A stretch of 64,000 nt of DNA from Neisseriaceae bacterium (GCA_027484385.1 JAIXTB010000133.1:714-64713), one strand, 5' to 3'; shown: positions 3,790 through 63,612, counted from the first letter of the stretch. Notes: generated from the sequence alone by a model not told the origin. Made by a program: numbers and translations.

Positions 3790-4094
3790 TGAGCGACAAA
3801 CCCGCCCCTAAAGACCCGCTGCAAGGCGTGACCCTGGAAGCGCTGCTGAACGAGCTGGTGGCGCACTATGGTTGGCCGCAGCTGGGCCGGCTGGTGAAGA
3901 TCCGCTGCTTCAACAGCGACCCCAGCATCAAGTCCAGCCTCACCTTTCTGCGCCGCACGCCATGGGCACGGGCCGAAGTCGAGGCGCTGTACATCCAGCT
4001 GAAAACACCCAAACCCGCCCGCCCGCCACGCACACACACCAGCCAGGGCAACGCCCCGCGCGTGCTGTTTGGCCGCAAGCCGGACGCCAGCTAA
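3789..4094 (+). CDS. VF530/DUF2132-family putative DNA-binding protein
   Basis: DPLQGVTLE...YGW..L...[24 protein letters not shown] family signature. Confidence 0.85.
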
Positions 4095-4145
4095 ACCCTG
4101 CCCGGGCGGGCATATTGCCAGCCGATAGCATGACAGCTACACAGC

Positions 4146-4188
4146 CAATACATTACTATTGATAACCGTTATCAATAGTAATGTATTG
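4146..4188. promoter_or_regulatory. Fur-box-centred perfect 21-1-21 inverted repeat upstream of the ECF sigma gene
   Basis: caatacattactattgataac-c-gttatcaatagtaatgtattg. The core TGATAAC-C-GTTATCA resembles the 7-1-7 Fur box, and it lies directly upstream of an iron-uptake operon. Confidence 0.8.
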
Positions 4189-4190
4189 CG

Positions 4191-4715
4191 ATGACTGCTG
4201 CCTTGCTCCCGCCTGCCGCCACGCCACAGCACTGGTTCGGCATAGACCTGCACTGGGCCTACGCCGAGCTGCTGTCGGCACTGCGTCGCCAGTGCGGCTG
4301 CCCGCAGCGCGCCAAAGACGTGTTGCACGACGCCTTGCTGCGCTACGCGCTATTACAGCACCGCAGCCAGGTAGCCGAGCCGCAAGCCTACCTGCGCCGC
4401 GTGGCACAAAGCGTGCTGAGCGACCAGCTGCGGCGCGACCAGCGCTATGTCTTCGAGGCCGCGCCTGATGAGCAGCGGCTGCCCGCCACCCCCGACACCG
4501 CCGACCTGGCCGCGCTACGCCAGCGCCTGGCGCTGCTGCAGCACGTGATCAACACCCTGCCGCCACGCTGCCGCGAGGTGTTCTGGCGCGTGCGGGTAGA
4601 AGGCAGTAGCCAGCCCGAGGTAGCCGCCGCGCTAGGTATCAGCCTCAATATGGTGGAACGCCACCTGATACGCGCCATGCTGGACCTGCGCGCGCTGCAA
4701 GAGCAGGGCGCATGA
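4191..4715 (+). CDS. FecI-like ECF sigma factor
   Basis: Region 2 (AKDVLHDA...AYLRRVA) and region 4 (LPPRCREVF...VAAALGIS.NMVERHL); overlaps the fecR-like gene. Confidence 0.88.
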   Translation: MTAALLPPAATPQHWFGIDLHWAYAELLSALRRQCGCPQRAKDVLHDALLRYALLQHRSQVAEPQAYLRRVAQSVLSDQLRRDQRYVFEAAPDEQRLPATPDTADLAALRQRLALLQHVINTLPPRCREVFWRVRVEGSSQPEVAAALGISLNMVERHLIRAMLDLRALQEQGA

Positions 4716-5638
4716 GCGGGCTACGCGAAGAAGCGGCACGCTGGTTCCTGCGCCTGCAAGCCCGGCCCGACGACGACAGCCTGCGCACCCGTTTTGAGGC
4801 CTGGCTGCTGGCCGACCCGCGCCACGCCCACGAATACCGCCAGTTCGACAGCCTGTGGCACGGGCTGGATCGGCCCGACACGCTGCAACAGCTGGCCCGC
4901 GCCGCCGAAATCCGCCGCCAGCAACGCCGCCAGCTGCTCAAAGGCAGCGCCGCCAGCGTGCTGCTGGGCGTGGCCGGCTGGCGCTTGTGGGCCTGGCGCG
5001 ACGCGCAGCCGCAATGGCAAACCACGCTAGCCAGCCGCCGCGCACCACTAAGGCAAACCCTGCCCGACGGCAGCGTGCTCACCCTGAACGCCGCCAGCCG
5101 CGCCAGCGTGCGCTACCTGGCCGCCATGCGCCACGTGCAGCTGGACGCCGGCCGCGCGCTGTTTGACGTGCAGCGCGATAGCGAGCGGCCGTTTGTGGTT
5201 AGCACCCCGCTGGGCCAGGTCACCGTGCTGGGCACCCATTTTGCCGTACAGCTGGACGGCCAGCAGCTGCATGTGGCGGTGGCCAGCGGTCGGGTAAAGG
5301 TTGGCCGCCACGCCGGTGACAGCCTGGCCGTACTGCAAGCGGGCGACTACCTGACGCTGGGGCCAGCCGGTGCACAGCGTACAGCGGCGCCGGCGGTAGA
5401 CCCTTTCCTGTGGGCGCAGGGTACGCTGGCCTTCCACAACGCCACCCTGCAGCAAGTAGCCGCCACGCTGACGCCGTACCACCACCAAACTATCCGGGTA
5501 GAAGCCAGCCCGCAGCTGCGCCTCACCGCCGTGGTACAGCTGCGCGACCTGTCCACCTTTCTGCAACGCCTGCCGCAAGTGCTGCCGGTCAGCCTGGTAG
5601 ACACCCCCACCGCCACCGTGCTGCGCCAACGCCGTTAA
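4712..5638 (+). CDS. FecR-family anti-sigma/signal transducer
   Basis: N-terminal EAARWF...FEAWL..DPRH, a TM segment, and LPDGS.LTLN / GQVTVLGT.F motifs. Confidence 0.9.
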   Translation: MSGLREEAARWFLRLQARPDDDSLRTRFEAWLLADPRHAHEYRQFDSLWHGLDRPDTLQQLARAAEIRRQQRRQLLKGSAASVLLGVAGWRLWAWRDAQPQWQTTLASRRAPLRQTLPDGSVLTLNAASRASVRYLAAMRHVQLDAGRALFDVQRDSERPFVVSTPLGQVTVLGTHFAVQLDGQQLHVAVASGRVKVGRHAGDSLAVLQAGDYLTLGPAGAQRTAAPAVDPFLWAQGTLAFHNATLQQVAATLTPYHHQTIRVEASPQLRLTAVVQLRDLSTFLQRLPQVLPVSLVDTPTATVLRQRR

Positions 5639-5661
5639 AAAAAGTTGCGGCCAACTCATCA

Positions 5662-5685
5662 GGGAAAACCGTCGGCCAAACGTCA
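5662..5685 (+). promoter_or_regulatory. Possible ECF (FecI-type) promoter for the receptor gene
   Basis: GGGAAAA ... CGTCA arrangement in the fecR-receptor intergenic gap; pattern match only. Confidence 0.3.
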
Positions 5686-5748
5686 GACACAGGACAAGCA
5701 CCCGTAGCCGCCGCCATCAGGTGCCCCCACCCTGAACGGAGCACTCGC

Positions 5749-8064
5749 ATGACACCTCGCCACACCCTGCTGGCGGCCACGCTGGCCGCCGCCTTCGCCA
5801 GCGCCCAGGCAGCAGACCTGCAGCTGGATCAAGCCGGCCAGCCGCTGGCCAGCAGCCTGCAGCAACTGGCCCGCCAGGCCGGCATTACCCTGATCGTGGA
5901 CAGCAGCCTGCTGGCCGGCAAACAAGCCCCGGCGCTGAAAGGCCAGATGAGCTGGCAAGCCGCCCTGCAACAGCTGCTGGCAGGTAGCGGCCTGCAGCTG
6001 CGCGTGGATGGCAATACCGTTACCGTGCTGCCGGCCCCCCGCGCAGCACACGCCACCACCACGCTGCCCACCGTGCAGGTCACCGCCGACACAGCGGCCA
6101 ACCCCGGCCTGCCTGCCAGCTACCACAGCCGCGCCGCGCGCAGCGGCAGCAAGACCCGCACCCCGCTGGCCGAGGTGCCACAGGCAGTCAGCGTGGTGAA
6201 TACGCTACAGCTGCAAGACCAGCGCGCCGCCACCGTGGCCGAGGCGGTGAGCTACACCCCCGGTGTGGCGGTGTACCCCACCGCGCTCACCGACGACGAC
6301 GTCATCCTGCGTGGCTTTGGTGTGTCCAAAGACGGCCTGTACCGCGACGGCCTGCGCCTGTACCACAACGCCTTCATCAGCCGCAGCGAGCCCTACGGCC
6401 TGGAGCGGGTAGAAGTGGTACGCGGCCCGGCCTCGGTGCTGTACGGCCGTGCCACCCCCGGCGGCATGGTGAACATGGTAAGCAAGCAACCCCGCGCCGG
6501 CATGCAGAACGAAATCGTGGTGGAAAGCGGCAGCCACGGCCACCGTCAGCTGGCCGCTGACATCGGCGGCCAGCTGGACGACGCCGGCACGCTGCGCTAC
6601 CGCCTCACCGCGCTGGGCCGCGACAGCGATACGCAGTGGCAATACCTGCCCGACAACCGCCGCTACCTGGCGGCGGCACTGAGCTGGCAGCCCAGCGACG
6701 CCACCAGCCTGCTGCTGCAGGCGCAGTACCAGCACGACGAAAACGGCTGGGCCGTACCCAGCCAGCTAGTCAGCCCCGGCGCCTTGGGCCAGCCGGATGC
6801 CAGCACCAACCTGCAAGGCCCGGACACGCTGCACGACAAAAAGGGCAGCATGCTGGGCTACCAGTTCAGCCACGCCTTCAACCCGGCGCTGACGCTGCGC
6901 CAGAACGTGCGCTACCTGGACGGCGACAACACCCGGCGCGAGGTACGCCCGCTGGCGCTGGCCGCCGACGGCCGCACGCTCAGCCGCCGCGCCTGGTACC
7001 GCCTGAACCAGGAAACCTCGCTGGCCGCCGACACTCAGCTGGAAAGCCGGCTGCAGCACGGCGATATCCAGCACACGCTGCTGGCCGGCGTGGACTGGCG
7101 CCGCAGTACCTTCCGCCACCCCACCTACCGTGGTGCGGCCAACGCGGTAGACATCTTCAACCCGGTGTTCACCGTACCGGCCTGGGAAAATCTGCCGCTG
7201 CTGTGGGACGACAAAGACACCTCGCGCCAGCTGGGCGTCTACCTGCAAGACCAGGTCAAGCTGGGCGAGCGCTGGGCGGTAACCGCCGGCCTGCGCCACG
7301 ACAAAGTGCGTGACAGCAACGAGCAGCTGGTTGCCAAGCTCACCACCACCGACCGCAGCAGCGCCACCACCGGCCGCCTGGGCGTGGTGTACCTGGCCGC
7401 CAACGGCCTAGCGCCGTACCTCAGCTACAGCACCTCGTTCCAGGCCATCAGCGGCAACGACGCCTACGGCCAGCGCATGAAACCGGAGCAAGGCGAGCAG
7501 TGGGAAGCCGGCGTGCGCTACCAGCCGGAAGACAGCGACACCACGCTGGCGGCCAGCGTGTACCAGCTGCTGCGCGACAACGTCACCACCACCGCGCCGG
7601 CCCCGCTGAGCGGCAATGTGCAAACCGGCCAGGTACGCGCCCGCGGCGTGGAGCTGGAAGCCAGCCTGCGCCTGGCGCGGCAGTGGGACCTGCTGGCCGC
7701 ACTAAGCCATACCGACACCGCCATTACCCGCAGCAACAAGGCCAATGAAGTGGGCCGCCGCGTGGAAATGGTGCCCGACTGGCAAGCCGCGCTGTGGGCC
7801 AAGTACCGCTTTGCCGGCGCACTGCAAGGCATCAGCAGCGCCGTTGGCGTGCGCCACGCTGCCACGTCGCAAGGCGGTGGAGCCAGCCACAACGATGCCT
7901 ACACGCTGACCGACGCCATGCTGGCGTGGGAAAACCGCAGCTGGCGTGCCGCGCTGAACGTGAGCAACGTGTTCGACCAGCACTACCTGACGCTGTGCGA
8001 CGGCACCTTCTGCGCGCCGGGCTTTGGCCGCGCCACGAAGGCGTCGCTGGCCTACCGCTGGTAA
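5749..8064 (+). CDS. TonB-dependent siderophore receptor with N-terminal signalling (STN) domain
   Basis: Signal peptide, STN-like LASSLQQLARQAG, plug ERVEVVRGPASVLYG, C-terminal aromatic residue (YRW). Start at 5749 after a GGAG RBS. Confidence 0.93.
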   Translation: MTPRHTLLAATLAAAFASAQAADLQLDQAGQPLASSLQQLARQAGITLIVDSSLLAGKQAPALKGQMSWQAALQQLLAGSGLQLRVDGNTVTVLPAPRAAHATTTLPTVQVTADTAANPGLPASYHSRAARSGSKTRTPLAEVPQAVSVVNTLQLQDQRAATVAEAVSYTPGVAVYPTALTDDDVILRGFGVSKDGLYRDGLRLYHNAFISRSEPYGLERVEVVRGPASVLYGRATPGGMVNMVSKQPRAGMQNEIVVESGSHGHRQLAADIGGQLDDAGTLRYRLTALGRDSDTQWQYLPDNRRYLAAALSWQPSDATSLLLQAQYQHDENGWAVPSQLVSPGALGQPDASTNLQGPDTLHDKKGSMLGYQFSHAFNPALTLRQNVRYLDGDNTRREVRPLALAADGRTLSRRAWYRLNQETSLAADTQLESRLQHGDIQHTLLAGVDWRRSTFRHPTYRGAANAVDIFNPVFTVPAWENLPLLWDDKDTSRQLGVYLQDQVKLGERWAVTAGLRHDKVRDSNEQLVAKLTTTDRSSATTGRLGVVYLAANGLAPYLSYSTSFQAISGNDAYGQRMKPEQGEQWEAGVRYQPEDSDTTLAASVYQLLRDNVTTTAPAPLSGNVQTGQVRARGVELEASLRLARQWDLLAALSHTDTAITRSNKANEVGRRVEMVPDWQAALWAKYRFAGALQGISSAVGVRHAATSQGGGASHNDAYTLTDAMLAWENRSWRAALNVSNVFDQHYLTLCDGTFCAPGFGRATKASLAYRW

Positions 8065-8068: not shown

Positions 8069-8105
8069 TGCGGCCAACCTGCGCCACCCGGCCAGGTTGG
8101 CCGCA
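8069..8105. repeat. Inverted pair of the TGCGGCCAACCT motif (hairpin)
   Basis: TGCGGCCAACCT-gcgccacccggcc-AGGTTGGCCGCA immediately after the receptor stop codon. Confidence 0.85.
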
Positions 8106-10374: not shown

Positions 10375-11150
10375 ACGATGGCTTGTTACTGCAAGGCGTG
10401 GCCGCCAGCTACGGCCGCCGCCAGATCCTGGCCGACATCAGCTGCCCGCCGCTACCACGTGGCGAAGTCACCGCCGTGCTGGGCCCCAATGGCTGCGGCA
10501 AGTCCACGCTGCTGAAAACACTGGCCGGCCTGTTGCCATTGCACGGCAGTGTGACGCTGGATGGCCAGGCGCTGGGCGCGCTACCGCTGGAAGCGCGCGC
10601 CCGCCACGTGGTGTACCTGCCGCAAAGCCTGCCGCCGGCGCTGCACCTGCGGGTGGTAGAGTCGGTGATGGTAGCGGCCAACGCCAGCGGCCTGGGGCTG
10701 GCCAGCCGCCACGCGGCAGCCGACATCGACACCCTGCTGGCGCGGCTGGGCATGGCCGAACTGGGCATGCGCTACCTGGACGAACTGTCTGGCGGCCAGA
10801 AACAGCTGGTGGGCCTGGCGCAGGCGCTGATCCGCCAGCCCGACGTGCTGCTGCTGGATGAACCCTTGTCGGCACTGGACCTCAACCACCAGTGCCACGT
10901 GATGCAGCTGGTGGCCGAGGAAACCCGCCGCCGCCGCATGGTGACGCTAGTGGTACTGCACGACCTCAATATTGCGCTGCATCACTGCCACCGTGCGCTA
11001 TTACTGAAAGACGGCGCCGTGCTGGCCTGCGGCCAACCTGCCGGTGTGATTACCCCGGCTACGCTGGCCAGCGTCTACGGCGTGCAAAGCCGCGTTGAAG
11101 CGTGTTCGCGTGGCCGCCTTAATGTACTGATCGACGGCGTCATCGCCTGA
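10371..11150 (+). CDS. Iron-siderophore ABC ATP-binding protein
   Basis: GPNGCGKST Walker A, LSGGQKQ signature, LLDEP Walker B. Confidence 0.93.
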   Translation: MNDGLLLQGVAASYGRRQILADISCPPLPRGEVTAVLGPNGCGKSTLLKTLAGLLPLHGSVTLDGQALGALPLEARARHVVYLPQSLPPALHLRVVESVMVAANASGLGLASRHAAADIDTLLARLGMAELGMRYLDELSGGQKQLVGLAQALIRQPDVLLLDEPLSALDLNHQCHVMQLVAEETRRRRMVTLVVLHDLNIALHHCHRALLLKDGAVLACGQPAGVITPATLASVYGVQSRVEACSRGRLNVLIDGVIA

Positions 11151-11172
11151 ACCACCCCACCAGGAACCCACC

Positions 11173-11913
11173 ATGAGCCACCCCACCGACCGCCAGTACC
11201 ACTTCGACACCCAGGTGGTACGCATCACCCAGCTCACACCGCGCATGCGCCGCATCACGGTAAACTGCCCGGAACTGGCCGTGTTTCACGTGGAAAACGG
11301 CCCCAACATCAAGCTGTACTTTGCGCTACCCGGCGGTGGCCGTACCTCGCGTACCTACACCGTGCGCCACTTTCGCCGTGATGCGCTGGAGCTGGATGTC
11401 GATTTCCTGCTGCACGAGCCGGACGGTGCGGCCTCGCACTGGGCACGCCACGCCCAGCCCGGCGATACGCTGGCCATCATGGGCCCGCGTGCACCACTAG
11501 ACCTGGCCGGCGAACAGCAGCTACTGCTGCTGGCCGACCTGTGCGCACTGCCTGCGGCCAGCGCGCTGCTGGAAAGCCTGCCCGCCGACACCTGCGGCCA
11601 CGCGCTGCTGGCAGTACCGGCCGAGGACGAGATCATCGCGCTGCAACACCCGGCCGGTATTGCCGTGCAATGGGTAGTGAACCCCGCTGTAGACGCGCTG
11701 CTACCGGCGCTGGCGGCGCTGCCCGCCAGCCAGTGGCAAGATGCCTACCTGTGGGCCGCGGCCGAGTCCGGCGTGGTAAAAGCCATCCGCGCGCACTTCA
11801 TCGCCGCCGGCCGCAGCAGCCGTGCCCGCACGCGGCTGGTGGGCTACTGGAAACAAGGCCTGGCCGAGCACGAATACCACGACCTGCGCCACGTGGAGAT
11901 GGACGAGACTTGA
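11173..11913 (+). CDS. Siderophore-interacting FAD-binding reductase (ViuB/YqjH family)
   Basis: SRTYTVR, LDVDFLLH..G.ASHWA..A.PGD, GYWK motifs. Confidence 0.9.
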   Translation: MSHPTDRQYHFDTQVVRITQLTPRMRRITVNCPELAVFHVENGPNIKLYFALPGGGRTSRTYTVRHFRRDALELDVDFLLHEPDGAASHWARHAQPGDTLAIMGPRAPLDLAGEQQLLLLADLCALPAASALLESLPADTCGHALLAVPAEDEIIALQHPAGIAVQWVVNPAVDALLPALAALPASQWQDAYLWAAAESGVVKAIRAHFIAAGRSSRARTRLVGYWKQGLAEHEYHDLRHVEMDET

Positions 11914-12000: not shown

Positions 12001-12609
12001 ATGAAACTGTTCTACTCCCCCGGTGCCTGCTCGCTGTCCCCGCACATTGCCCTGGCCGAGAGCGGCCTGCCGTACCAGTTCGAAAAAGTGAACCTGCGCG
12101 CCGAGCCACGCCTCACCGAAAGCGGCGCCGACTTCCGCGCCATCAACAGCAAGGGCTATGTACCGGCACTGCAGCTGGACAACGGCGAGATCCTCACCGA
12201 AGGCCCGGCGCTGGTGCAGTACATTGCCGACCAGGCGCCGGAAAAAAACCTGGCCGCGGCCAACGGCACGCTGGCGCGCTACCGCCTGCAAGAAGCGCTG
12301 AACTTCATTTCCACCGAAGTACATAAAGGCTTCTCCCCGCTGTTCCACAGCCAGGACGAGGCGGTAAAAGAAGCCGCCTGGCAGCGCCTGACCACCCGCT
12401 TTGACGCGCTCAACGCCACGCTGGGCCAGCAAGACTACCTGCTGGGCGACAGCTACACCGTGGCCGACGGCTACCTGTTCGTGTGCCTGTCGTGGACCAA
12501 ATACGTTGGCCGCACCCTGGATGCCTGGCCGGCGCTGCAGGCGTTCAGCGCCCGCATCTTTGCCCGCCCGGCGGTGCAACAAGCGATGAAAGAAGAAGGC
12601 CTGCTGTAA
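12001..12609 (+). CDS. gstA: Glutathione S-transferase (beta class)
   Basis: MKLFYSPGACSLSPHI, N.KGYVPAL..DNGEILTEG. Confidence 0.9.
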   Translation: MKLFYSPGACSLSPHIALAESGLPYQFEKVNLRAEPRLTESGADFRAINSKGYVPALQLDNGEILTEGPALVQYIADQAPEKNLAAANGTLARYRLQEALNFISTEVHKGFSPLFHSQDEAVKEAAWQRLTTRFDALNATLGQQDYLLGDSYTVADGYLFVCLSWTKYVGRTLDAWPALQAFSARIFARPAVQQAMKEEGLL

Positions 12610-12688: not shown

Positions 12689-13033
12689 ATGACCCACCTT
12701 GTGAACGTAGACGGCCTGATCGCCGCCCAGCGCGAGTTTGCCACCGCCCGCCACTGGCAGCCGTTTCACACCCCGCGCAACCTGATGCTGGCGCTGACCG
12801 GCGAAGTCGGCGAGCTGGCCGAGATCTTCCAGTGGAAAACCGACGCCGAGGCCGCCAACCTTGCGGCCAACCCAGCCGACTACACCCACTTGCAGGAAGA
12901 GCTGGCCGATGTGCTGATGTACCTGGTGCGACTGGCCGATGTGACAGGCGTAGACCTGAACGCCGCCGTGGCAGACAAGCTGCAGAAGAACGCCCGCAAG
13001 TACCCGGCCGACGGCAGCCGCGCACTGGGCTAA
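12689..13033 (+). CDS. MazG-like nucleotide pyrophosphohydrolase
   Basis: WQPFHTPRNL..AL.GEVGELAEIFQW, EELADVL.YL. Confidence 0.88.
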   Translation: MTHLVNVDGLIAAQREFATARHWQPFHTPRNLMLALTGEVGELAEIFQWKTDAEAANLAANPADYTHLQEELADVLMYLVRLADVTGVDLNAAVADKLQKNARKYPADGSRALG

Positions 13034-13119: not shown

Positions 13120-15024
13120 ATGACACGCCAACTGTTTGCCGCCAGCCTGCTGGCCATGGCCGTTAGCACCACCTGGGCCGCCCCGGTGAAGCTGCGCCTG
13201 CTGGAAACCAGCGATATCCACATGAACCTGGTGAACTACGACTACTACCAGGACAAAGCCACCGATGATTTTGGCCTGGCCAAAACCGTCAGCCTGATCA
13301 AGACCGCGCGTAGCGAAGCCAGAAACAGCGTACTGATCGACAACGGCGACCTGCTGCAGGGCAGCCCGATGGGCGACCTGGTGGCCAAGGTCAAACCGCT
13401 GAAAAAGGGTGAAACCCACCCGGCCTACACCGTGATGAACGCGCTGCGCTACGACGCCGGCAATATCGGCAACCACGAATTCAACTTCGGCCTGCCCTTC
13501 CTCAAGCAGGCGCTGAAAGGTGCTGCCTTCCCCTATGTGTCGGCCAACGTCACCGACGCCAAAACCGGCAAGCCGCTGGTGCAGCCCTACACCCTGCTCA
13601 AGCGCAAGGTACAGGACGAAGACGGCAAGACGCACACGCTGACCATCGGCGTGATCGGCTTCGTACCGCCGCAGATCCTGATGTGGGATAAGGCCAACCT
13701 GGAAGGCCGCGTGCAGGCGCAGGACATCCTGGACAGCGCCCGCCGCTACGTGCCGGAAATGAAGAAAAAGGGCGCAGACATCGTGGTAGCGGTGGCGCAC
13801 TCCGGCTTCGAGAAGAGCGAACAGCCGCGTTTTGCCGAAAACTCGGTAGCCGGCCTGGCCGAGGTAGCGGGCATTGACGCCATCCTGTTTGGCCACGCCC
13901 ACGCCGAGTTTCCATCCAAGGCGTTTGCCGACTACCCCAAAGTGAATATCGACAAAGGCACCATCAACGGCGTGGCCGCCACCATGCCCGGCCGCTGGGG
14001 CGACCACCTGGGCGTCATCGACCTCACCCTGGACAAGGTTGGCCGCAGCTGGAAAGTGGTCGACCAGCAAGCCAGCCTGCGCCCCATCTTCGACAAGAAA
14101 GCCAAAAAGCCCACCGTAGACGCCGACCCCATGGTGCGCGAGCTGATTGGCCATGTGCACGACGATACCCTGACCTACGTGCGCGGCCGCGTGGCCGAGA
14201 GCACCGCCCCCATCTACAGCTACTTTGCCCAGGTAGCGGATGACCCGTCGGTACAGATCGTGTCGCAAGCCCAGCTGTGGTATGTGCAAAACGCCGTACG
14301 CGGCACCGAATACGAAAAGCTGCCGCTGCTGTCTGCCGCCGCGCCTTTCAAGGCGGGCGGCCGCCAGGGCTGGGGCTACTACACCGATATTCCGGCCGGC
14401 CCGCTGGCCATCAAGCACCTGGCCGACCTGTACATCTACCCCAACACCCTGAAAGTGGTGAAGGTAAAAGGCAGCGACGTACGCGAATGGCTGGAACGCT
14501 CCGCCGGCCAGTTCAACCGCATCGACCCGCAAGGCCCGGCCACCCAGGCGCTGATCAACCCGGACTTCCGCTCGTACAACTTCGATACCATCGACGGCGT
14601 GAGCTACGACATCGACGTCACCCAGCCCTCGCGCTATGACATGGATGGCAAGCTGGTCGCGGCAGAAGCCCGCCGCATCGTGAACCTGCGCTACAACGGC
14701 CAGCCGCTGGACGACAACCAGACCTTCCTGGTAGCCACCAACAACTACCGCGCCAGCGGCGGTGGCAACTTTGCCGGCCTCAACGGCAAGCAGATCGTCA
14801 TTGATGCCCCGGATGAAAACCGTGAAGCACTGGCGCGCTACCTGGCCAGCAAAGGCACCGTGAACCCCAGCCGCGACAACAACTGGCGCATTTTGCCGGT
14901 AGCCGGTGTCGGCCTGCGCTTTAGCACGGGTGCCGGTGCCCGCGCCGTGCTGGCACGCCACCCGGAACTCACCCTGGCAAGCGATAACGGGGACGGCTCA
15001 CTCAGTATCGAGCTGATCAAATAG
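13120..15024 (+). CDS. cpdB: 2',3'-cyclic-nucleotide 2'-phosphodiesterase/3'-nucleotidase
   Basis: ETSDIH, DNGDLLQGSP, GNHEFN, FGHAH metallophosphoesterase motifs and YTYPNTL-like C-terminal domain. Confidence 0.92.
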   Translation: MTRQLFAASLLAMAVSTTWAAPVKLRLLETSDIHMNLVNYDYYQDKATDDFGLAKTVSLIKTARSEARNSVLIDNGDLLQGSPMGDLVAKVKPLKKGETHPAYTVMNALRYDAGNIGNHEFNFGLPFLKQALKGAAFPYVSANVTDAKTGKPLVQPYTLLKRKVQDEDGKTHTLTIGVIGFVPPQILMWDKANLEGRVQAQDILDSARRYVPEMKKKGADIVVAVAHSGFEKSEQPRFAENSVAGLAEVAGIDAILFGHAHAEFPSKAFADYPKVNIDKGTINGVAATMPGRWGDHLGVIDLTLDKVGRSWKVVDQQASLRPIFDKKAKKPTVDADPMVRELIGHVHDDTLTYVRGRVAESTAPIYSYFAQVADDPSVQIVSQAQLWYVQNAVRGTEYEKLPLLSAAAPFKAGGRQGWGYYTDIPAGPLAIKHLADLYIYPNTLKVVKVKGSDVREWLERSAGQFNRIDPQGPATQALINPDFRSYNFDTIDGVSYDIDVTQPSRYDMDGKLVAAEARRIVNLRYNGQPLDDNQTFLVATNNYRASGGGNFAGLNGKQIVIDAPDENREALARYLASKGTVNPSRDNNWRILPVAGVGLRFSTGAGARAVLARHPELTLASDNGDGSLSIELIK

Positions 15025-15196: not shown

Positions 15197-16132
15197 ATGA
15201 CGCTATCTGACCACTCGCTTACCCCGCCAACCGGCCAGCTCCACCCGGACGCAGCACGGCTGCAGCAAATCCTGGATTTACTGCCCCATCCCGTCATGCT
15301 GTTCCGGCCAGACCATACCGTGGAATACGCCAACGCCGAAGCCCGTCGCCAGTATGGCGAGCCAAAACACGGGCCATGCCATCACTATATCCACGGCAGC
15401 AGCCAACCCTGTGACGACGACAAACCCTGCCCGCGCCAGCAGGTAATCGAATGGCGCAAACCTGTCACCACCGAACAAACCTGTACCGACAGCTTTGGCC
15501 AGCAACGCTTTTTTGAGATTACCCTGGCGCCGCTATTCAATGCACAAGGCGAGCTGGATGGCCTGCTGGAAACGCACCACGATGTCACCGCCCGCCGCCA
15601 GGAAGCCCAGCGCCTGCAGCTGCTGCAAGGCCACCTTACCGAGCTGGCCCACCGTGACTCGCTCACCGGGCTGGCCAACCGTCGTTACCTGGAACTGAAG
15701 CTGGACAACCTAGCCAAGGACACCGCATCCCGTCTGTGCGCCTTGCTGTTTCTGGACCTGGATCGTTTCAAGGCCATTAACGATGTGCACGGTCACGTCA
15801 TTGGCGACCGCGTGCTGTCTACCATGGCCGCGCGCCTGCGCGGTGTCGTCCGCACCAGTGACCTGCTGATCCGCGTAGGCGGTGACGAGTTTGCCGTCCT
15901 GCTGGAAAGCACCAATGAGAGCGGTGCCCGCGCCGTCGCCAGCAAGATCATCGCCACGCTGTCCGGCCCGGTAGAGGGGCTAAGCCTGCCCAACAGCGTC
16001 AGCGCCTCGGTGGGCATCACCCTGTTTACCAGCGGCAGTGTCATGCCACGCGATATCCTGACCCAGGCCGATAGCGCCATGTACCGCGCCAAACGCCGTG
16101 GCGGCAACGACCGCGAGCTGGTCAGACTGTAA
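15197..16132 (+). CDS. PAS-GGDEF diguanylate cyclase
   Basis: PAS-like N-terminus, DSLTGLANRR, RxxD I-site (RTSD) and intact GGDEF. Confidence 0.9.
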   Translation: MTLSDHSLTPPTGQLHPDAARLQQILDLLPHPVMLFRPDHTVEYANAEARRQYGEPKHGPCHHYIHGSSQPCDDDKPCPRQQVIEWRKPVTTEQTCTDSFGQQRFFEITLAPLFNAQGELDGLLETHHDVTARRQEAQRLQLLQGHLTELAHRDSLTGLANRRYLELKLDNLAKDTASRLCALLFLDLDRFKAINDVHGHVIGDRVLSTMAARLRGVVRTSDLLIRVGGDEFAVLLESTNESGARAVASKIIATLSGPVEGLSLPNSVSASVGITLFTSGSVMPRDILTQADSAMYRAKRRGGNDRELVRL

Positions 16133-51000: not shown

Positions 51001-52013
51001 GGGGTATCTCCTGCGGTGGTAGCGGGGTGGTAGTGCTGTTCCAGGGTGGCGTGGCCATGCGCTACATGCAGCGTGGCCCAGGCGCCGTTCATCAGGGTCC
51101 ATTGCGGTGGTACATGGCCGATGTCGGCATCCAGTACCAGCGGGCAGGGCAGGCCGTCCAGCGCTTGCATGACGGCTTCTTCGTACTGCAGGTCGCCCGG
51201 CTGCGCGGCCTCGGGGCCGCTGCTGCGCCCCAGTATCAGCCCGGCCAGGCTATCGAACGCCCCGGCCAGGCGCATGGCGGTCAGGGCGCGGGCGAGCTCG
51301 CACGGGGCCAGCTCGCAGTTTTCCAGGTACAGCAGCACGGGTTGGCCGCGCCAGGCTTGCAGGTCGAAGTATGGCGTGGTGGCCAGGCGCGACAGCGTAT
51401 CCAGGCAGCCACCGATCAACCGGCCGGCCATGCTGGCCTGTGCAGCCCCTGCCACACGCACGCGGCTGTTTTTAGTTACACCGGGGTCGCCAAACGGCCA
51501 AAAGTGCGTGAAGGCCTGCTGGCGAGGCGGCAAACCGTGCTGCCAGCTGTGCCACAGCGGCTGCATTTCGCTTTGGCGGGCCGGGTGGCTGATATCAAAC
51601 ACGTTCGGGCTGTGCAGCGTGGCCCAGCCGGCGCGCAGGGTAAACGGTACCGCCAGCGTGGACACATCAGAAAAGCCGCACAGCCATTTGGGCGGCAATG
51701 CGGCCAACCTTGGCCAGTCCAGCCCGGCCAGCAGCTGCATGGCCAGCTCGCCACCCCAGGGCGGCAAAATAGCCTTGATCTCCGGGTCGTACAGAAAACC
51801 GTTGAGCTCTGCCAGCCGGGTAGCGGCACTGGCACTGGCGTTTTTTTCTTGCCGGCGCAGGGTGTCGCCCTCCACCACCTGGTAGCCGGCCGCACGCAGG
51901 GCGGCAATAGAAGCGTCCAGGCGGGCGTGCATCACCTCGGGGACACCGGAGGACACCGCGCACAGCGCCAGCGTGTCACCGGGCTGCAATGGGGCAGGAA
52001 AGCGCAAGTTCAT
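50997..52013 (-). CDS. S66-family LD-carboxypeptidase (MccF-like)
   Basis: GFSDVS (Ser), LYLENCE (Glu), DIGH (His) triad; PPWGGE. Confidence 0.85.
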
Positions 52014-53109: not shown

Positions 53110-53689
53110 TAGACTGTCCAGTAATTAAATTGATAAGGGCTGATGAAGGACATCATCGGCTGTGGATAAGCCTGTTTTCCTGTTTTTTTTCAAACGCTTG
53201 CGCTACATGAACAGCTGTGCTTGTCTGGCCTGTTTTGTGGTGCAAGCTTTGTGGATAAATTGGCGCTTATGTGATTAACCCGGTTTGTCCACACGCCTAA
53301 GCCTGCTTTTACCTGCTGCCTGTGCATCAAGTGTGCCATGACGGCTGGTCTGCAGCGAAGCGTATTGCGTGAGCCACCCGGTTTTGACTTTCTGCAGACC
53401 GCTGTTTTTTGTTGCCGCATTGGCTAGCCGTTTCGCACCTCACGCTTTCATTGTTTTCACATTAGTTATTTGAAGACAATGATATACAAGACCATTTGCT
53501 GTGGATAAGTATAAAAAACAACTTTCTTTCAAGGTGTTAACATGTGTGTGGCTACCCTATTAACCCCGTCTGCGTTGACGGGAGCCTTTGTGGATAACTA
53601 TGACCTTTCTTATCCACAGCGCTTTATCCACATTCGGGTCGCCGCGATTTTACTTGGTTAACCACAGGGGCAGCCGTAAAATTCCGCGC
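53110..53689. other. Candidate replication origin (oriC): DnaA-box cluster and AT-rich tract
   Basis: Perfect DnaA boxes at 53161, 53250, 53500, 53589 (minus) and 53610, 53624 (plus); near matches at 53285 and 53658; 53461-53520 is about 27% GC. Confidence 0.7.
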
Positions 53690-54649
53690 ATGAAAAATGT
53701 CCTCCTGCTGCGCACATCATCGATGGGCGACCTTATCCACACCTGGCCGGCACTCACCGACCTGGCACGACACCAGCCCGATACCCGCATCACCTGGCTG
53801 GCCGAAGAAGCCTTTGTGGATATCCCCGGCCTGCACCCGCAAGTACAGGCCACGCTGCCCATTGCCTGGCGCCGCTGGCGCAAGCATTTGCTCGCGCGCG
53901 ATACCTGGCAGCAGATGGCGGCACTGAAAGCATCATTACAAAGCACGCGCTGGGATCTGGTGCTGGACGCACAAGGCCTGTTGAAAAGTGCGCTGCCGGG
54001 CTGGCTGGCCAACGGCCCGCTGGCCGGCTACGACGCCGCCAGCATCCGTGAACCGTTGGCCGCACGTTTTTATCAGCGCCACTACACCGTCAGCCGCCAG
54101 CTGTCAGCCATCGAGCGCAACCGCCGCCTGTTTGCCGCAGCTTTCGGCTATGAAGTAAGCGGCGCGCCGGTGTTTGGCATCCGCGCCGGTGCCCGCCCGG
54201 GCTGGCTGCCCGCCGGGCACTACGCCGTGTTGCTGCACGCCACCAGTCGCGACAGCAAGCTGTGGCCCGAGCCGCACTGGCTGGCACTGGCGGCCGAGCT
54301 GGCCGCACAAGGGCTGTATGCAGTACTGCCGTGGGGCAATGCGGTGGAGCAAGCGCGGGCAGAGCGCTTGGCCGCCGCCATGCCGGGTGCGCTGGTGGCA
54401 CCGCGCATGCCGCTGCGCGATGCAGCAGCGCTGCTGGGCCACGCCGCTGCCGTGGTGGGGGTGGATACCGGCCTGACCCATCTGGCCAACGCGCTGGATG
54501 TGCCATTGGTGGCGATCTATACCGATACCGACCCGGCGCTCACCGGCGTAATAGAAACCACGCGTGCGGCCAACATTGGCCAGGCTGGGCAGGTACCGCC
54601 GGTAGGCGCGGTGCTGGCGCTGCTGGCCCGCGTGCGGGGGGCGGCCTGA
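53690..54649 (+). CDS. waaC: Lipopolysaccharide heptosyltransferase I
   Basis: RTSSMGDLIH, DAQGLLKSA, VGVDTGLTHLA. Confidence 0.9.
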   Translation: MKNVLLLRTSSMGDLIHTWPALTDLARHQPDTRITWLAEEAFVDIPGLHPQVQATLPIAWRRWRKHLLARDTWQQMAALKASLQSTRWDLVLDAQGLLKSALPGWLANGPLAGYDAASIREPLAARFYQRHYTVSRQLSAIERNRRLFAAAFGYEVSGAPVFGIRAGARPGWLPAGHYAVLLHATSRDSKLWPEPHWLALAAELAAQGLYAVLPWGNAVEQARAERLAAAMPGALVAPRMPLRDAAALLGHAAAVVGVDTGLTHLANALDVPLVAIYTDTDPALTGVIETTRAANIGQAGQVPPVGAVLALLARVRGAA

Positions 54650-55896
54650 TGCTGCTGCAGCTGTATTCCGCCCTGTGGCCGCTGCTCACCCCATTGATCA
54701 AGCGTTACCTGAAAAAGCGCGCCCGCCAGGCACCGGCTTATCTTGAACACTGGGACGAGCGCTTCGGCCGCAGCCTGCCGCAGCCACGCGGGCAGCAGAT
54801 CTGGCTGCACGCCGTGTCGGTGGGCGAAACCCGCGCTGCGCTGCCGCTTGTGAAAGCCTTGCGCGCACGTTATCCCCAGGCCAGCCTGCTGATTACCCAG
54901 ATGACGCCCACCGGCCGGGCCACCGCGCAAGAGCTGTACCCAGACGCCCAGGTGCATTACCTGCCGTACGACAATCTGCGCTGGATGCGCCGTTTCGTTG
55001 CCGCCGCGCAGCCTGCCTGCCTGTTGCTGATGGAAACCGAAATCTGGCCGGCCATGATCCACGCCTGCCGCGACGCCAACGTGCCGGTACTGCTGGTGAA
55101 CGCGCGGCTGTCGGAAAAATCCGCCCGCGGTTACCAGCGCATACGCCGCCTGGTACGCCCGGCCCTGCAGCGCCTGAACGCCGTGGCCGCGCAAAGCCCC
55201 GACGACGCCGCCAGGTTGGCCGCATTAGGCACGCCGCCACCGCTGGTGTGCGGCAGCACCAAGTACGATTTCACCCCACCCGCCGACAAGCTGGCGCTGG
55301 GCGAGGCCTTCCGTGCCCGCATCGGTGCGCGCCCGGTGTGGGTGTGCGCCAGCACGCGGGATGGCGAAGAAGCGCTGATTCTGGATGCCTGGCGCGCCGC
55401 CGGCCCGCAGCAGGCCTTGCTGGTGCTGGTGCCGCGCCACCCCGAGCGCTTTGCCGAGGCGGCACAGTTGGCCGCCGCGCGGGGTTTTGCCGTACAGCGC
55501 CGTAGCGACCAGGCCGCGGTGGCCGCCGACACCCAAGTGTGGGTGGGCGACAGCATGGGCGAGCTGTTTGCCTATTACGCCGCCGCCGATGTGGCCTTTG
55601 TTGGCGGCTCGCTGCTGGATTTTGGCGCGCAGAACCTGATCGAGCCGGCGAGCGCAGGCATTCCTGTACTCCTGGGGCCCTCCACCTATAATTTTGCCGA
55701 GGCCAGCGCGCTGGCCCTGCAGGCGGGCGCAGCGCGCCAGGTGCACGACGCAAGCCAGCTGGTCGCCACGGCATTGCAGCTGCTGGCCGACACCGATGCC
55801 CGCCAGCGTATGCGCCAGGCTGGCCTGGCCTTTACCGCCGCCCACCGTGGCGCCAGTGAGCGTATTGCCAGCCTGATCGCAGAAACACTGGGCTAA
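54649..55896 (+). CDS. waaA: Kdo transferase
   Basis: WLHAVSVGE, LPYD, METEIWP, NARLSEKS, VPRHPERF, DSMGEL, AFVGGSL. Confidence 0.95.
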   Translation: MLLQLYSALWPLLTPLIKRYLKKRARQAPAYLEHWDERFGRSLPQPRGQQIWLHAVSVGETRAALPLVKALRARYPQASLLITQMTPTGRATAQELYPDAQVHYLPYDNLRWMRRFVAAAQPACLLLMETEIWPAMIHACRDANVPVLLVNARLSEKSARGYQRIRRLVRPALQRLNAVAAQSPDDAARLAALGTPPPLVCGSTKYDFTPPADKLALGEAFRARIGARPVWVCASTRDGEEALILDAWRAAGPQQALLVLVPRHPERFAEAAQLAAARGFAVQRRSDQAAVAADTQVWVGDSMGELFAYYAAADVAFVGGSLLDFGAQNLIEPASAGIPVLLGPSTYNFAEASALALQAGAARQVHDASQLVATALQLLADTDARQRMRQAGLAFTAAHRGASERIASLIAETLG

Positions 55897-55970: not shown

Positions 55971-56501
55971 ATGCCGGATTACCCCTTAGCCGACCCCTTG
56001 CTGGACGGGGTCTATACCAGCCGCTTGCGCCTGGCTGCCCCGCAGCCGGGCGACGGCGCGGCATTGCAGGCCGCCATCGAGGCCAGCCTGCCGCTGCTGC
56101 GTTGTTTTCCCGACAGCCTGCCGTGGGCGCAGCCGCCACAGCACGCCGAGGCCTGCGAAGCCTGGTGTCGCAAGGTGGCGCTGGTGTGGCCGCAAGGGCA
56201 GGACAAGATTGCCCTGCTTTGGCTGGGGGGCGAGATAGTGGGCTGTTGCGAGTTGCACCTGCGCAGCGCGCAGTGCTGGGAGCTGGGTTTTTGGGGCCAC
56301 CCGGACTGGCTGGGGCTGGGTTTGTATACCGAAGCCACCGACAGCATGTTATCGCTGGCGTTTGGCCCCTACGGCGCGCAGGAGGTGTACGCCTGTACCG
56401 CTGCGGCCAACCATGCCGCACGGCGCCTGTGCCAGCGCCTGGGCATGGTGGAGAGCTGGCAGGATGACAGCAGCTGCCACTACCGAATACGGCTGAATTA
56501 G
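55971..56501 (+). CDS. RimJ/RimL-family GNAT acetyltransferase
   Basis: TSRLRL, ELGFW...G.G..TEA, N.AARRL..RLG. Confidence 0.78.
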   Translation: MPDYPLADPLLDGVYTSRLRLAAPQPGDGAALQAAIEASLPLLRCFPDSLPWAQPPQHAEACEAWCRKVALVWPQGQDKIALLWLGGEIVGCCELHLRSAQCWELGFWGHPDWLGLGLYTEATDSMLSLAFGPYGAQEVYACTAAANHAARRLCQRLGMVESWQDDSSCHYRIRLN

Positions 56502-61244: not shown

Positions 61245-62480
61245 ATGCATCAGCCCTGCCACACCCTGTGGATCAACGCCCGACTCGCCACCTGCGATGC
61301 GGCCAACCCTGCGCCCTATGGTGCGCTGGAAGGCCACGCGCTGTGGCTGCAGGATGGTCGCATCCACGCCGTGCTGCCGCAGGCCGAGGCACTGCAGGCG
61401 TTTGCTGGCGCTGGCGAGGTAATCGACGCGCAAGGCCGCTGGATCACGCCGGGCTTTATCGATTGCCACACCCACCTGGTGTACGGCGGCAACCGCGCCG
61501 CGGAATGGGAAAAACGCCTAACCGGCGTGCCCTACCAGCAAATCGCAGCCGAAGGCGGCGGCATTATCTCCACCGTGCGCGCCACCCGCAGCCTGGACGA
61601 AGACGAGCTGGCGCTGGCCAGCCTGCCACGCCTGAAAGCGCTGATGAAAGAAGGCGTCACCACGGTAGAGATCAAGTCCGGTTACGGCCTGACACTGGCC
61701 GACGAGCTGAAACAGCTGCGCGCCGCCCGCCGCTTGGCTGCTGCGCTGCCGGTGGAAGTGGCCACCACGCTGCTGTCGGCGCACGCGCTGCCGCCGGAAT
61801 ACGCCGGCCAGGCCGACGCCTATATCGATTACGTGTGCCACACCATCGTGCCGGCTGCCGCCGCCGAAGGCCTGGCCGAAGCGGTGGACGTGTTTTGCGA
61901 AGGGGTGGGCTTTTCGCCTGCGCAAACCCGCCGCGTGTTCGACGCCGCCCGCGCCCACGGCCTGCAGCTGAAAGGCCACGTGGAGCAGCTGTCCAACCTG
62001 CACGGCGCCGCGCTGGTGGCCGAGTTTGGCGGCCTGTCGGCAGACCACATCGAATACCTGGACGACGCCGGCGTAGCCGCCATGGCGCAGGCCGGCACCG
62101 TGGCCGTGCTGCTGCCCGGTGCGTACTACTTTTTGCGCGAAACGCAAAAGCCGCCGGTGGACAAGCTGCGCGCCGCTGGCGTGGCCATGGCGGTGTCCAC
62201 CGACCTGAACCCCGGCACCAGCCCGTTTGCCTCCATCCGCCTGGCCATGAACCAGGCCTGCGTGCTGTTCGGCCTGACGCCGGAAGAAGCCGTGCTGGGC
62301 ACCACCCGCCACGCCGCGCAGGCGCTGGGCCGCGCGGCCAGCCATGGCAAGTTGGCCGCAGGCTACGTGGCCGACCTGTTGCTGTGGGATATCGAGCACC
62401 CGGCGGAAATCGTGTACGGCCTGGGCACCAACCCGCTGAAACAGCGCGTGTTCCGTGGCGTGGCGCAGCAGATTGATTGA
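61245..62480 (+). CDS. hutI: Imidazolonepropionase
   Basis: PGFIDCHTHL, GVTTVEIKSGYG, VDVFCE, STDLNPGTSP. Confidence 0.96.
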   Translation: MHQPCHTLWINARLATCDAANPAPYGALEGHALWLQDGRIHAVLPQAEALQAFAGAGEVIDAQGRWITPGFIDCHTHLVYGGNRAAEWEKRLTGVPYQQIAAEGGGIISTVRATRSLDEDELALASLPRLKALMKEGVTTVEIKSGYGLTLADELKQLRAARRLAAALPVEVATTLLSAHALPPEYAGQADAYIDYVCHTIVPAAAAEGLAEAVDVFCEGVGFSPAQTRRVFDAARAHGLQLKGHVEQLSNLHGAALVAEFGGLSADHIEYLDDAGVAAMAQAGTVAVLLPGAYYFLRETQKPPVDKLRAAGVAMAVSTDLNPGTSPFASIRLAMNQACVLFGLTPEEAVLGTTRHAAQALGRAASHGKLAAGYVADLLLWDIEHPAEIVYGLGTNPLKQRVFRGVAQQID

Positions 62481-62512
62481 TCTGTCTGCCTTGAATACAG
62501 AAAACATTTTTA

Positions 62513-62604
62513 GCCACGGAATACACGGAAGACACAGAAAAAAGAAGCCGGCTTCAATGGCATAGGGTTTGGTTTTTTTCCGTGCTTTCTGTGTATTCCG
62601 TGGC
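62513..62604. repeat. Intergenic inverted-repeat element with three 9-nt-periodic CAC(G/A)GAA units per arm
   Basis: gccacggaatacacggaagacacagaaa ... tttccgtgctttctgtgtattccgtggc. Confidence 0.85.
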
Positions 62605-62679
62605 AAAAAAGAAATGCAGTTTTTAAGTGCCGTGGCAAACCACCAGGCGTGCCTGATGACCGGCAAAAAGGATTTTCAA

Positions 62680-63612
62680 ATGACGATAGACATGAGCATG
62701 TGGACCGGCCGCGTCGACGCCGCCGAAGGCGACGCCGCCCGTCGCTGGCACCAGGCCGTACAGCCGCTGGCCGCGGGTGCTGTGCCCGGCATTGCCATCC
62801 TCGGCTTTGCCTGCGACGAAGGCGTGCGCCGTAACCAGGGCCGTACCGGCGCGGTGGATGGCCCGCTGGCGCTGCGCCGTGCGCTGGCCAACCTGGCCTG
62901 GCACCCCACGCTGCCGCTGTACGACGCCGGCACCGTGCGCTGTGACGACGGCGACCTGGACGCCGCGCACGAAAGGTTGGCCGCAGCCGTTACCGCCATT
63001 GTGCAAGCCGGCCACCTGCCGCTGGTACTGGGTGGCGGCCACGAAACCGCCTACGGCCACTGGCTGGGCCTGGCCCGTGCCCACGCCGGCAAGCGCATCG
63101 GCATCGTCAATTTCGACGCCCATTTCGACCTGCGCCAGGCCGACACCGCCACCAGCGGCACGCCGTTTGCGCAGATCGCCGCCGCCTGCAGCACGCTGGG
63201 CCAGCCGTTCCGCTACCTGTGCCTGGGTGTGGCGGAAACCGCCAACACCCGTGCGCTGTTCGATACCGCAGCCCGGCTGGGCGCCGAATGGCGGCTGGAT
63301 AGCGATATGGCCCCGTGGCAGCTGGCCGAAGCGCGCCAGCAGCTGGCCGAGTTTATCGACAGCGTAGACGCCGTGTACCTGACCATCGACCTGGACGTAC
63401 TGCCCGCCGCGCAAATGCCGGCGGTGTCGGCACCGGCAGGTTATGGCGTGGATATCGCCGTGGTGGATGCGCTGGTGGCCAAGCTGGCCCGCAGCGGCAA
63501 GCTGATTGGCGCCGACCTGGTGGAATTCAACCCCGCTTTCGACCAGGACAGCCACGGCGCCAAAGCCGCCGCCCGCCTGGCCTGGGGCATTACCCGCCAG
63601 CTACGCCGTTGA
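62680..63612 (+). CDS. hutG: Formimidoylglutamase (arginase family)
   Basis: GFACDEGVRRNQGR, GGGHETAY, NFDAHFDLR, TIDLDVLP..PAVSAP. Confidence 0.93.
   Translation: MTIDMSMWTGRVDAAEGDAARRWHQAVQPLAAGAVPGIAILGFACDEGVRRNQGRTGAVDGPLALRRALANLAWHPTLPLYDAGTVRCDDGDLDAAHERLAAAVTAIVQAGHLPLVLGGGHETAYGHWLGLARAHAGKRIGIVNFDAHFDLRQADTATSGTPFAQIAAACSTLGQPFRYLCLGVAETANTRALFDTAARLGAEWRLDSDMAPWQLAEARQQLAEFIDSVDAVYLTIDLDVLPAAQMPAVSAPAGYGVDIAVVDALVAKLARSGKLIGADLVEFNPAFDQDSHGAKAAARLAWGITRQLRR

Follow-up and report, generated by a model that had tools for sequence, protein, structure and literature searches.

The question raised by the stretch GCA_027484385.1 JAIXTB010000133.1:714-64713 (64,000 nucleotides, called the window below, with positions counted from its first letter) is why a single short word is dispersed over it in dozens of copies, within genes as well as between them and on both strands. 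The window belongs to a Vogesella sp. assembly of 3.47 Mb with 61.5% GC in 334 contigs (G000). Here, GCGGCCAAC is referred to as the 9-mer core, TGCGGCCAAC as the 10-mer and T-GCGGCCAAC-CT as the 12-mer, and TGCGGCCAACCT is the cognate Vogesella word spelled out. A first-pass annotation of the window had proposed a new dialect of the DNA uptake sequence (DUS). The word does resemble an uptake sequence in its density, strand distribution, use of reading frames, inverted pairs and conservation, but it lacks the CTG core of the known DUS and, judging from its sequence, is therefore not a dialect of the Neisseriaceae DUS. We consider it probable, at roughly 0.65, that a self-DNA tag of the DNA-uptake-sequence type, with CGGCCAAC as its conserved core, is spelled T-GCGGCCAAC-CT in Vogesella.

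Dinucleotide shuffles of the window yield 0.90 copies of the 10-mer on average and never more than 3, whereas the window itself has 42 exact copies, of which 19 lie on the plus strand and 23 on the minus. Of these copies, 29 extend by a C to the 11-mer and 16 by CT to the 12-mer, and among the 61 copies of GCGGCCAAC there are 19 that do not extend to the 10-mer. Crude gene calls place 33 copies in coding sequences (CDSs) and nine between genes; since the pair at 8069/8096 lies 5 nt past a stop codon it is probably intergenic, and the split becomes about 31 to 11. The earlier count made by hand (41 copies, 18 plus and 23 minus, with 28 11-mers, 16 12-mers, about 18 copies of the 9-mer only, and about 30 copies in CDSs to 11 intergenic) is thus reproduced almost to the copy, as is the span of 3871-62985, which runs from the first site to the end of the last one. 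In the whole genome the 10-mer occurs 2,144 times and is the most frequent of all 10-mers, with one copy per 1.6 kb, whereas the next unrelated 10-mer is found 643 times; the 9-mer core has 2,998 copies, and in this genome as well as in the whole genus the word of 9-12 letters is spaced at about one per 1.2-1.6 kb. Markov models of order 1-5 predict only 23-110 copies of the 10-mer in the genome. Within CDSs, where 1,525 copies were counted, codon permutation leads to an expectation of 14.5, and a synonymous shuffle within each predicted gene, which keeps the protein sequence (and hence every dipeptide) together with the codon usage of that gene, yields 61 +/- 6. The enrichment therefore outlasts a dipeptide-preserving shuffle and is not local to the window, two points on which the uptake-sequence proposal could have failed; it is also found in related genomes, as all 17 Vogesella genomes carry the word and sister genera carry dialects of it.

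The word has a sharp 9-mer core, with 0-29 copies for single substitutions at positions 2-10 of the 12-mer vs 757 copies of the 12-mer itself, and soft flanks, with T at position -1 in 71% and then C in 53%, T in 52% and T or G. Beyond -1 and +12 the information content drops to about zero, which shows that the word does not lie within a longer repeat, and AT-rich flanking segments were not seen. All six reading frames are used, namely 624 copies as xxT-GCG-GCC-AAC, 477 as TTG-GCC-GCA, 214 as GTT-GGC-CGC and 65-76 in each of the other three, and sense and antisense copies within CDSs are balanced (765:756). The density is 0.52 per kb in CDSs vs 1.04 per kb outside, hence twofold higher between genes. 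Of the 1,109 Ala-Ala-Asn tripeptides, 942 (85%) are spelled with GCGGCCAAC, whereas codon usage predicts 10%. The commonest spelling of Leu-Ala-Ala is TTG-GCC-GCA, at 29 times the expectation and despite the rare codons TTG and GCA, and Val-Gly-Arg is written GTT-GGC-CGC in 66% of cases, 21 times the expectation, with GTT accounting for 7% of Val codons. Furthermore, Ala-Ala-Asn is 2.6 times commoner than the amino-acid frequencies predict, and the reverse tripeptide Asn-Ala-Ala is not raised. Due to this use of frames, codons and tripeptides it is clear that the word is maintained as DNA and has left its mark on protein sequences. Two 9-mer cores abutting head to head also form a perfect 18-bp palindrome, GCGGCCAACGTTGGCCGC, which occurs 30 times in the genome (e.g., C4:5797-5814 and C48:10729-10746) and in several cases lies in a predicted CDS, where it reads Ala-Ala-Asn-Val-Gly-Arg.

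Among the Vogesella genomes, the 16 other than G000 hold 1,885-2,903 copies, about evenly divided between the strands. When two Vogesella species of 78% nucleotide identity are aligned, the word is exactly conserved at 11 of 24 sites (46%) vs 17% of all 9-mers, and several sites are common to four Vogesella loci that encode the closest relatives of the ComP homologue described below. Outside the genus, eight other genera of the family Chromobacteriaceae have 8-58 copies of the Vogesella word, and counts in 16 further families of the order are no higher than background. De novo k-mer counts in 80-kb samples and pattern counts over whole genomes revealed that other Chromobacteriaceae genera use the dialects TT-CGGCCAAC and GCT-CGGCCAAC in place of the TG dialect of Vogesella; CGGCCAAC is the core common to the three, and the 5' dinucleotide is the variable part. 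In the following, genera of the family are coded g, other families of the order f and genomes G. The TT dialect, TTCGGCCAAC, is present with 1,245 copies in g2, 2,169 and 581 in g4, and 1,851 in g26; in g3 it reaches 1,104 and 893 in two species and 148 and 185 in the other two, and in g6 it has 1,389 copies in one species and about 25 in each of nine others. The GCT dialect, GCTCGGCCAACCT, belongs to g5 (core totals of 2,078 and 2,432), and g7, g8 and g9 have no word and are near background. Genomes of one genus can thus differ sharply, with about 1,000 copies in G081 and G083 vs about 150 in G018 and G082 (g3), and 1,389 in G021 vs about 25 in nine congeners (g6); all these g3 and g6 genomes have intact ComP-like and comEC genes.

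When the core CGGCCAAC was counted in 150 sampled genomes of the order, with the reversed word as control, a single outlier appeared outside the family. G119, a genome of 1.9 Mb with 44-48% GC from family f53, contains 1,841 copies of the core vs 4 of the control, and its spelling is the TG one of Vogesella, extended to tTGCGGCCAACCTTTt (loci L144-L148 and L152-L155). As a positive control, the canonical DUS GCCGTCTGAA selects f52 only (1,863 and 298 copies), and because of this exclusive enrichment f52 is identified as Neisseriaceae. In a quick single-gene tree of RpoB, Neisseriaceae are sister to f53 plus Chromobacteriaceae, and word-bearing and word-free lineages are interleaved, a pattern that fits either an old origin of the word with repeated loss or a repeated gain. 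As a side observation on rpoB, no stop codon interrupts its antisense frame along the full 4.1 kb in seven genomes (L104, L111, L113, L114, L118, L120, and L121), an artefact of high GC content.

Part of this distribution had already been recorded in another context. Laribacter, Lutiella, Pseudogulbenkiania and two Chromobacterium genomes were described as being without an abundant repeat that would be an obvious DUS, and the DUS system was said to have arisen after the split from those genera (Frye et al., 2013, PMC3630211). Table S1D of the same study lists GTTGGCCGAA as the top and most over-represented 10-mer, with 1,104 copies in Lutiella nitroferrum 2002 and 1,153 in Pseudogulbenkiania sp. 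NH8B, and does not call it a DUS. Read on the other strand, this 10-mer is TTCGGCCAAC, the TT dialect, and since the count in G081 is also exactly 1,104, g3 points to Pseudogulbenkiania. The statement of the first-pass annotation that no DUS is described for Chromobacteriaceae is therefore correct as to the name, but the TT word itself had been listed. Vogesella is not mentioned by Frye et al. (2013), and what is new in comparison to that study is the Vogesella word, the TG and GCT dialects, the common core and the ComP-like pilin. Apart from that supplement, which holds the TT word, the literature that was searched yielded no link of these words, of Vogesella or of Chromobacteriaceae to an uptake sequence, and the other full-text matches to the words were only primers and unrelated items.

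An uptake signal of this kind would need a reader, for which a pilin or ComP-like receptor had been suggested, and the genome encodes a 138-aa prepilin homologous to ComP (G000:C190:11676-12089). Its closest relatives are encoded at loci of Vogesella mureinivorans, V. aquatica and related records. The best sequence matches in the PDB are the ComP structures 2m3k, 5hz7, and 2nba (E 1e-10 to 4e-8), the protein scores 33 bits for PF16732 (cut-off 27.3), and comP is the gene that it matches best in a Neisseriaceae genome with the DUS. The AlphaFold model of a 96%-identical cluster representative (pLDDT 85) has ComP 5hz7_A (E 1e-5, TM 0.63) and 2m3k as its top Foldseek matches, and the next pilin follows at E 0.47. 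A stronger PF16732 match (81 bits, the strongest) on contig C27 was rejected as ComP; it is a Pseudomonas PilE-type minor pilin with 4noa as the best PDB match, and its gene is clustered with PilW- and PilX-like genes. Immediately before the comP-like gene there is a gene for a GspH/FimT-like pilin (PF12019, G000:C190:~11095-11676), whose stop codon overlaps the comP-like start codon; the gene pair is located about 2 kb from pilQ and adjoins aroB. G119 also has a fimT-like and comP-like pair, so that both lineages of the TG dialect possess it, and the FimT-like proteins of Vogesella and G119 share 27% identity (E 2e-20) and the motif NLDIQGC. Within 1.2 kb upstream of comP no fimT-like gene was found outside Vogesella by tblastn, in a search that did not extend to whole genomes, and a scan for pilin motifs added only G119 to the carriers. 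The further competence genes, which had been named as a check, are in place as well: pilQ, three pilT/U genes, dprA, a comEA-like gene and comM are all present in G000, and comEC is intact in 15 of 16 congeners.

Several results weigh against an uptake function. Neisseria ComP has a DD region with two disulfides (C76-C125 and C118-C139) that makes most of the DNA contacts (Berry et al., 2016, PMC4906244), but the ComP homologue has two cysteines only and is therefore without this region; its alignment to ComP ends at about residue 112, and all homologues examined from Vogesella, the rest of Chromobacteriaceae and G119 of f53 have two C-terminal cysteines 8-10 residues apart. Full-length ComP homologues are found in every genus except g9, and thus also in the word-free g7, in most of g6 and in G018 and G082, and within Vogesella the identity of ComP drops to 44% while the word is unchanged. 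A ComP homologue is therefore present as suggested, but its lack of the DD region and its occurrence in word-free relatives leave it as a candidate receptor. The gene comEC is absent from the contigs of this assembly; because gene order in a complete congener places it exactly between the ends of contigs C290 (~12737-12812) and C87 (2583), to which its flanks map, an assembly gap is likely rather than a loss. In the family as a whole comEC is universal and hence no guide to which genomes bear the word. As both genes occur on either side, gene profiling rejected the ComP homologue and comEC as the cause of the patchy distribution, and so far no gene whose presence tracks the word has been found. 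Moreover, the GC content of the longest stretches without the word (6-14 kb) is 43-60%, and 43-55% in most of them, vs 61.5% in the genome, and as low GC itself lowers chance occurrence, the low word density in such islands is partly expected from base composition alone. Finally, no reports of uptake, transformation or binding were found in the literature for any Vogesella or Chromobacteriaceae. The probability given above is set where it is because the candidate receptor is without the DNA-binding region of ComP, no gene was seen to track the word and the function is read from sequence.

The failure to find a tracking gene and the ComP-like pilins of word-free relatives would suit an alternative in which an intracellular protein with no part in DNA uptake binds or recognises the word throughout the genome, acting in nucleoid organisation, in recombination or repair, or as a nuclease or methylation-linked factor, and the word is kept by selection at each site or by biased repair. 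The high specificity of the word and its even spacing would suit it too, as counts in 5-kb segments vary less than under Poisson (mean 4.3, variance 3.6). Chi and KOPS (FtsK-orienting polar sequences), which belong to this class, are strongly strand-polar with a bias to the leading strand that reverses at the origin and terminus, but the word is split 46:54 with respect to GC skew across 170 contigs, without replication polarity, and two replichore samples from a complete congener genome gave 20:13 and 11:9 without a reversal; a polar word of the Chi/KOPS type was rejected on these grounds. Around ~53.4 kb in the window, where a cluster of DnaA boxes (53110-53689) has been proposed as an origin, the orientation is likewise unchanged (25:25 to the left, 4:7 to the right), in flanks whose GC skew keeps its sign (-0.042 left, -0.015 right), so that orientation there says little. 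Restriction targets are usually avoided and not enriched. Biases driven by methylation or very-short-patch repair are weak and act on short palindromes rather than on an asymmetric 9-mer, and such a cause was rejected on prior knowledge. In addition, a non-palindromic 9-12-mer at about one copy per kb, in six frames and with dialects, is so far documented only for uptake sequences (PMC3630211; 10.1101/2025.10.24.684340). We therefore regard an intracellular site as unlikely, at well below an even chance.

Much less probable is that the word is a building block of terminator hairpins or of repetitive extragenic palindromic (REP)-like elements, with the genic copies being by-products of the spread of hairpins. 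Neighbours within 60 nt comprise 178 inverted pairs vs 16 direct pairs, the inverted ones mostly follow a gene or separate two convergent ones, and A and T runs flank many of them, e.g., AAAAGGTTGGCCGC...GCGGCCAACCTTTT. The three inverted pairs of the window have predicted folds of -33 to -46 kcal/mol (z -5.7 to -8.9) and are thus very stable. Together with the balanced orientation and the densities inside and outside of CDSs, these pairs bear out for the whole genome what had been noted for the window, i.e., copies on both strands, coding as well as intergenic, and inverted terminator-like pairs. On the other hand, only about 12% of the 9-mer copies are paired, and 70% are single copies in CDSs in all frames. 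The flanks are unconserved, and since there is no conserved unit beyond the word, a mobile REP unit, a bacterial interspersed mosaic element (BIME) or a miniature inverted-repeat transposable element (MITE) was rejected. Any G+C-rich arm would do for a terminator, so that one exact 9-mer throughout a genus and in a genome with 44-48% GC needs another cause. The copies and pairs in the window, with genic or intergenic position according to the crude gene calls, are the following.

3871-3880, minus: copy of TGCGGCCAAC, antisense in a predicted CDS, xGT-TGG-CCG-CAx frame
5646-5655, plus: sense, Ala-Ala-Asn, in the TonB-dependent receptor gene 5410-8064
7134-7143, plus: sense, Ala-Ala-Asn, in the same receptor gene
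8069-8105: inverted pair (8069-8078 plus, 8096-8105 minus), 5 nt past the stop codon of the TonB-dependent receptor gene; hairpin -46.4 kcal/mol, z -5.7
11028-11037, plus: intergenic
12505-12514, minus: antisense, coding strand GTT-GGC-CGC (Val-Gly-Arg)
12862-12871, plus: sense, TGC-GGC-CAA frame, start of a 5'-nucleotidase-like open reading frame
14038-14047, minus: antisense, Val-Gly-Arg frame
16153-16184: inverted pair between the convergent genes 15197-16132 (plus) and 16211-17425 (minus); hairpin -42 to -46 kcal/mol on either strand, z -8.8
19610-19619, plus: sense, Ala-Ala-Asn, in the chemoreceptor gene 17778-19856
20209-20218, minus: antisense, TTG-GCC-GCA (Leu-Ala-Ala)
20476-20485 and 20497-20506, minus: two direct copies in one gene, both in the Leu-Ala-Ala frame
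22255-22264, plus: intergenic, between convergent genes
25822-25831, minus: sense, TGC-GGC-CAA frame, in the sensor kinase gene 25457-26866 (minus)
27581-27590, minus: very start of gene 26863-27591 (minus), xTG-CGG-CCA frame
28693-28702, plus: sense, Ala-Ala-Asn frame
32671-32680, minus: antisense, Leu-Ala-Ala frame
33294-33303, minus: intergenic
35802-35811, minus: sense, Ala-Ala-Asn, in the gene 35649-39140 (minus) for a 1163-aa oxidoreductase with POR and DUF6537 domains
36495-36504, minus: sense, Ala-Ala-Asn, in the same oxidoreductase gene
37448-37457, plus: antisense, Val-Gly-Arg, in the same oxidoreductase gene
40442-40451, minus: intergenic, 9 nt past the end of gene 39261-40433
41277-41286, plus: sense, Ala-Ala-Asn frame
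42482-42491, plus: sense, Ala-Ala-Asn frame
43013-43022, minus: antisense, Leu-Ala-Ala frame
43980-43989, plus: sense, Ala-Ala-Asn frame
44101-44110, minus: antisense, Val-Gly-Arg frame
45356-45365, minus: sense, Ala-Ala-Asn frame
47184-47193, plus: sense, Ala-Ala-Asn frame
48296-48325: inverted pair between the convergent genes 47550-48278 (plus) and 48358-49149 (minus); hairpin -32.7 kcal/mol, z -7.8, then TTGTTTATT
51699-51708, plus: antisense, Leu-Ala-Ala frame
54055-54064, minus: intergenic
54565-54574, plus: sense, TGC-GGC-CAA frame, in the Kdo transferase gene
55215-55224, minus: antisense, Leu-Ala-Ala frame
56402-56411, plus: sense, Ala-Ala-Asn frame
61298-61307, plus: sense, Ala-Ala-Asn frame
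62351-62360, minus: antisense, Leu-Ala-Ala frame
62976-62985, minus: antisense, Leu-Ala-Ala frame

The window is ordinary chromosomal content and no island. It contains two proteins of cyclic di-GMP turnover (22280-25435 and 33851-35470) with the architectures PAS-GAF-GGDEF-EAL and CSS-EAL, and also the TonB-dependent receptor with an STN domain, the chemoreceptor, TctA and the Kdo transferase.

A by-product of composition, codon usage or frequent peptides can be dismissed as already refuted, for although the genome with its 61.5% GC is rich in Ala and Leu and the commonest frames encode Ala-Ala-Asn and Leu-Ala-Ala, the protein- and codon-usage-preserving shuffle leaves 61 of the 1,525 copies, the intergenic density is twice that of coding DNA, the rare codons TTG, GCA and GTT are recruited at 21-29 times the expectation, and equally GC-rich sister genera have 8-58 copies while G119 at 44-48% GC has its 1,841 copies of the core.

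For the self-DNA tag that we prefer, we infer binding, biased uptake and drive from the sequence-level properties of the word and the genes that are present, as follows. A component of the type IV pilus would prefer double-stranded DNA bearing the word, the leading candidate being the ComP-like minor pilin at G000:C190:11676-12089, possibly together with the FimT/GspH-like pilin. PilT-driven retraction would then pull the DNA through the PilQ secretin, and ComEA, ComEC, DprA, ComM, and RecA would finish transformation. If fragments bearing the word are taken up and recombined more often than others, the word would build up on both strands of the core genome, overriding codon preference and even the choice of amino acids within genes and forming inverted pairs between genes that double as terminator hairpins; DNA of recent acquisition would contain few copies. 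With the bias gone, the word would decay, and a shift of receptor specificity would lead to a new dialect, i.e., TG in Vogesella and f53, TT in Pseudogulbenkiania and others, and GCT in g5.

More tentatively, and with slightly less than even confidence, we propose that Chromobacteriaceae and the reduced-genome family f53 have an ancient uptake language of their own, with the core CGGCCAAC and at least three dialects, which is read by a ComP-type pilin without a DD region, together with a FimT-like pilin in the TG lineages. If this is true, pilin-mediated recognition of self-DNA predates the split of Neisseriaceae and Chromobacteriaceae, and the target word has fully changed at least once and has repeatedly been lost, namely in the Chromobacterium-like g7, g8 and g9 and in most of g6. 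To our knowledge, sequence-specific DNA uptake has been shown by experiment in only two bacterial families, and the words described here form a third internally consistent set of uptake-like words, in a group that was stated to have no DUS. As hosts such as Vogesella and Pseudogulbenkiania are free-living, cultivable and for the most part harmless, the co-evolution of receptor and word, reading without a DD region, the decay of words and the age of self-recognition become approachable, for which the TG vs TT dialects, G081 and G083 vs G018 and G082, and G021 vs its nine congeners are natural experiments. Moreover, the word could be used as a tag for a more efficient transformation of these organisms.

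Among the closest known systems, FimT of Legionella pneumophila, a minor pilin of the GspH family, reportedly acts as the DNA receptor for natural transformation without any sequence preference. Its putative counterpart is encoded by the GspH/FimT-like gene that overlaps the comP-like start in Vogesella and G119. The uptake signal sequences (USS) of Pasteurellaceae (AAGTGCGGT of the Hin-type and ACAAGCGGT of the Apl-type) are similar in density, occurrence in both orientations, even spacing and the presence of coding and intergenic copies. However, they have only TGCGG in common with the Vogesella word, which has no AT-rich helically phased flanks and occurs in another phylogenetic class, and their predicted receptor is ComN (bioRxiv 10.1101/2025.06.16.659825), which differs from the Vogesella candidate. 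The pentamer that had been pointed out as shared with the USS is thus present, but a 5-mer is no evidence of relatedness. The DUS of Neisseriaceae (AT-GCCGTCTGAA and its dialects) is likewise a non-palindromic word of 10-12 nt at about one copy per kb, on both strands, genic and intergenic, with terminator-like inverted pairs at gene ends and with lineage dialects around a conserved core; in addition, Vogesella has a ComP homologue with a ComP-like predicted fold, and its clade is sister to that of the DUS hosts in the RpoB tree. The DUS dialects have a conserved CTG at +6 to +8 and A at +10 (Frye et al., 2013, PMC3630211), whereas the Vogesella word, aligned as GCGGCCAACC, has CAA at positions 6-8 and C at position 10. 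The candidate receptor differs as well, since the Vogesella homologue has one disulfide and no DD region and homologues also occur in word-free relatives. A recent preprint adds Neisseriaceae dialects, among them AGCGGCCTGTAA, which keeps the CTG core (Helsem et al., 2025, bioRxiv 10.1101/2025.10.24.684340). This word belongs to Vitreoscilla massiliensis, and its 5' half GCGGCC is the same as in the Vogesella word. Homology to the Neisseriaceae words on the basis of GCGGCC and 7 of 12 matches (AGGTTGGCCGAA vs ATGCCGTCTGAA) was rejected, as this is too weak given that strand and offset are free. The Vogesella word is therefore a member of neither the DUS nor the USS; with the core and dialects particular to it, we assign it to a word family of its own, found in the lineage that is sister to Neisseriaceae.

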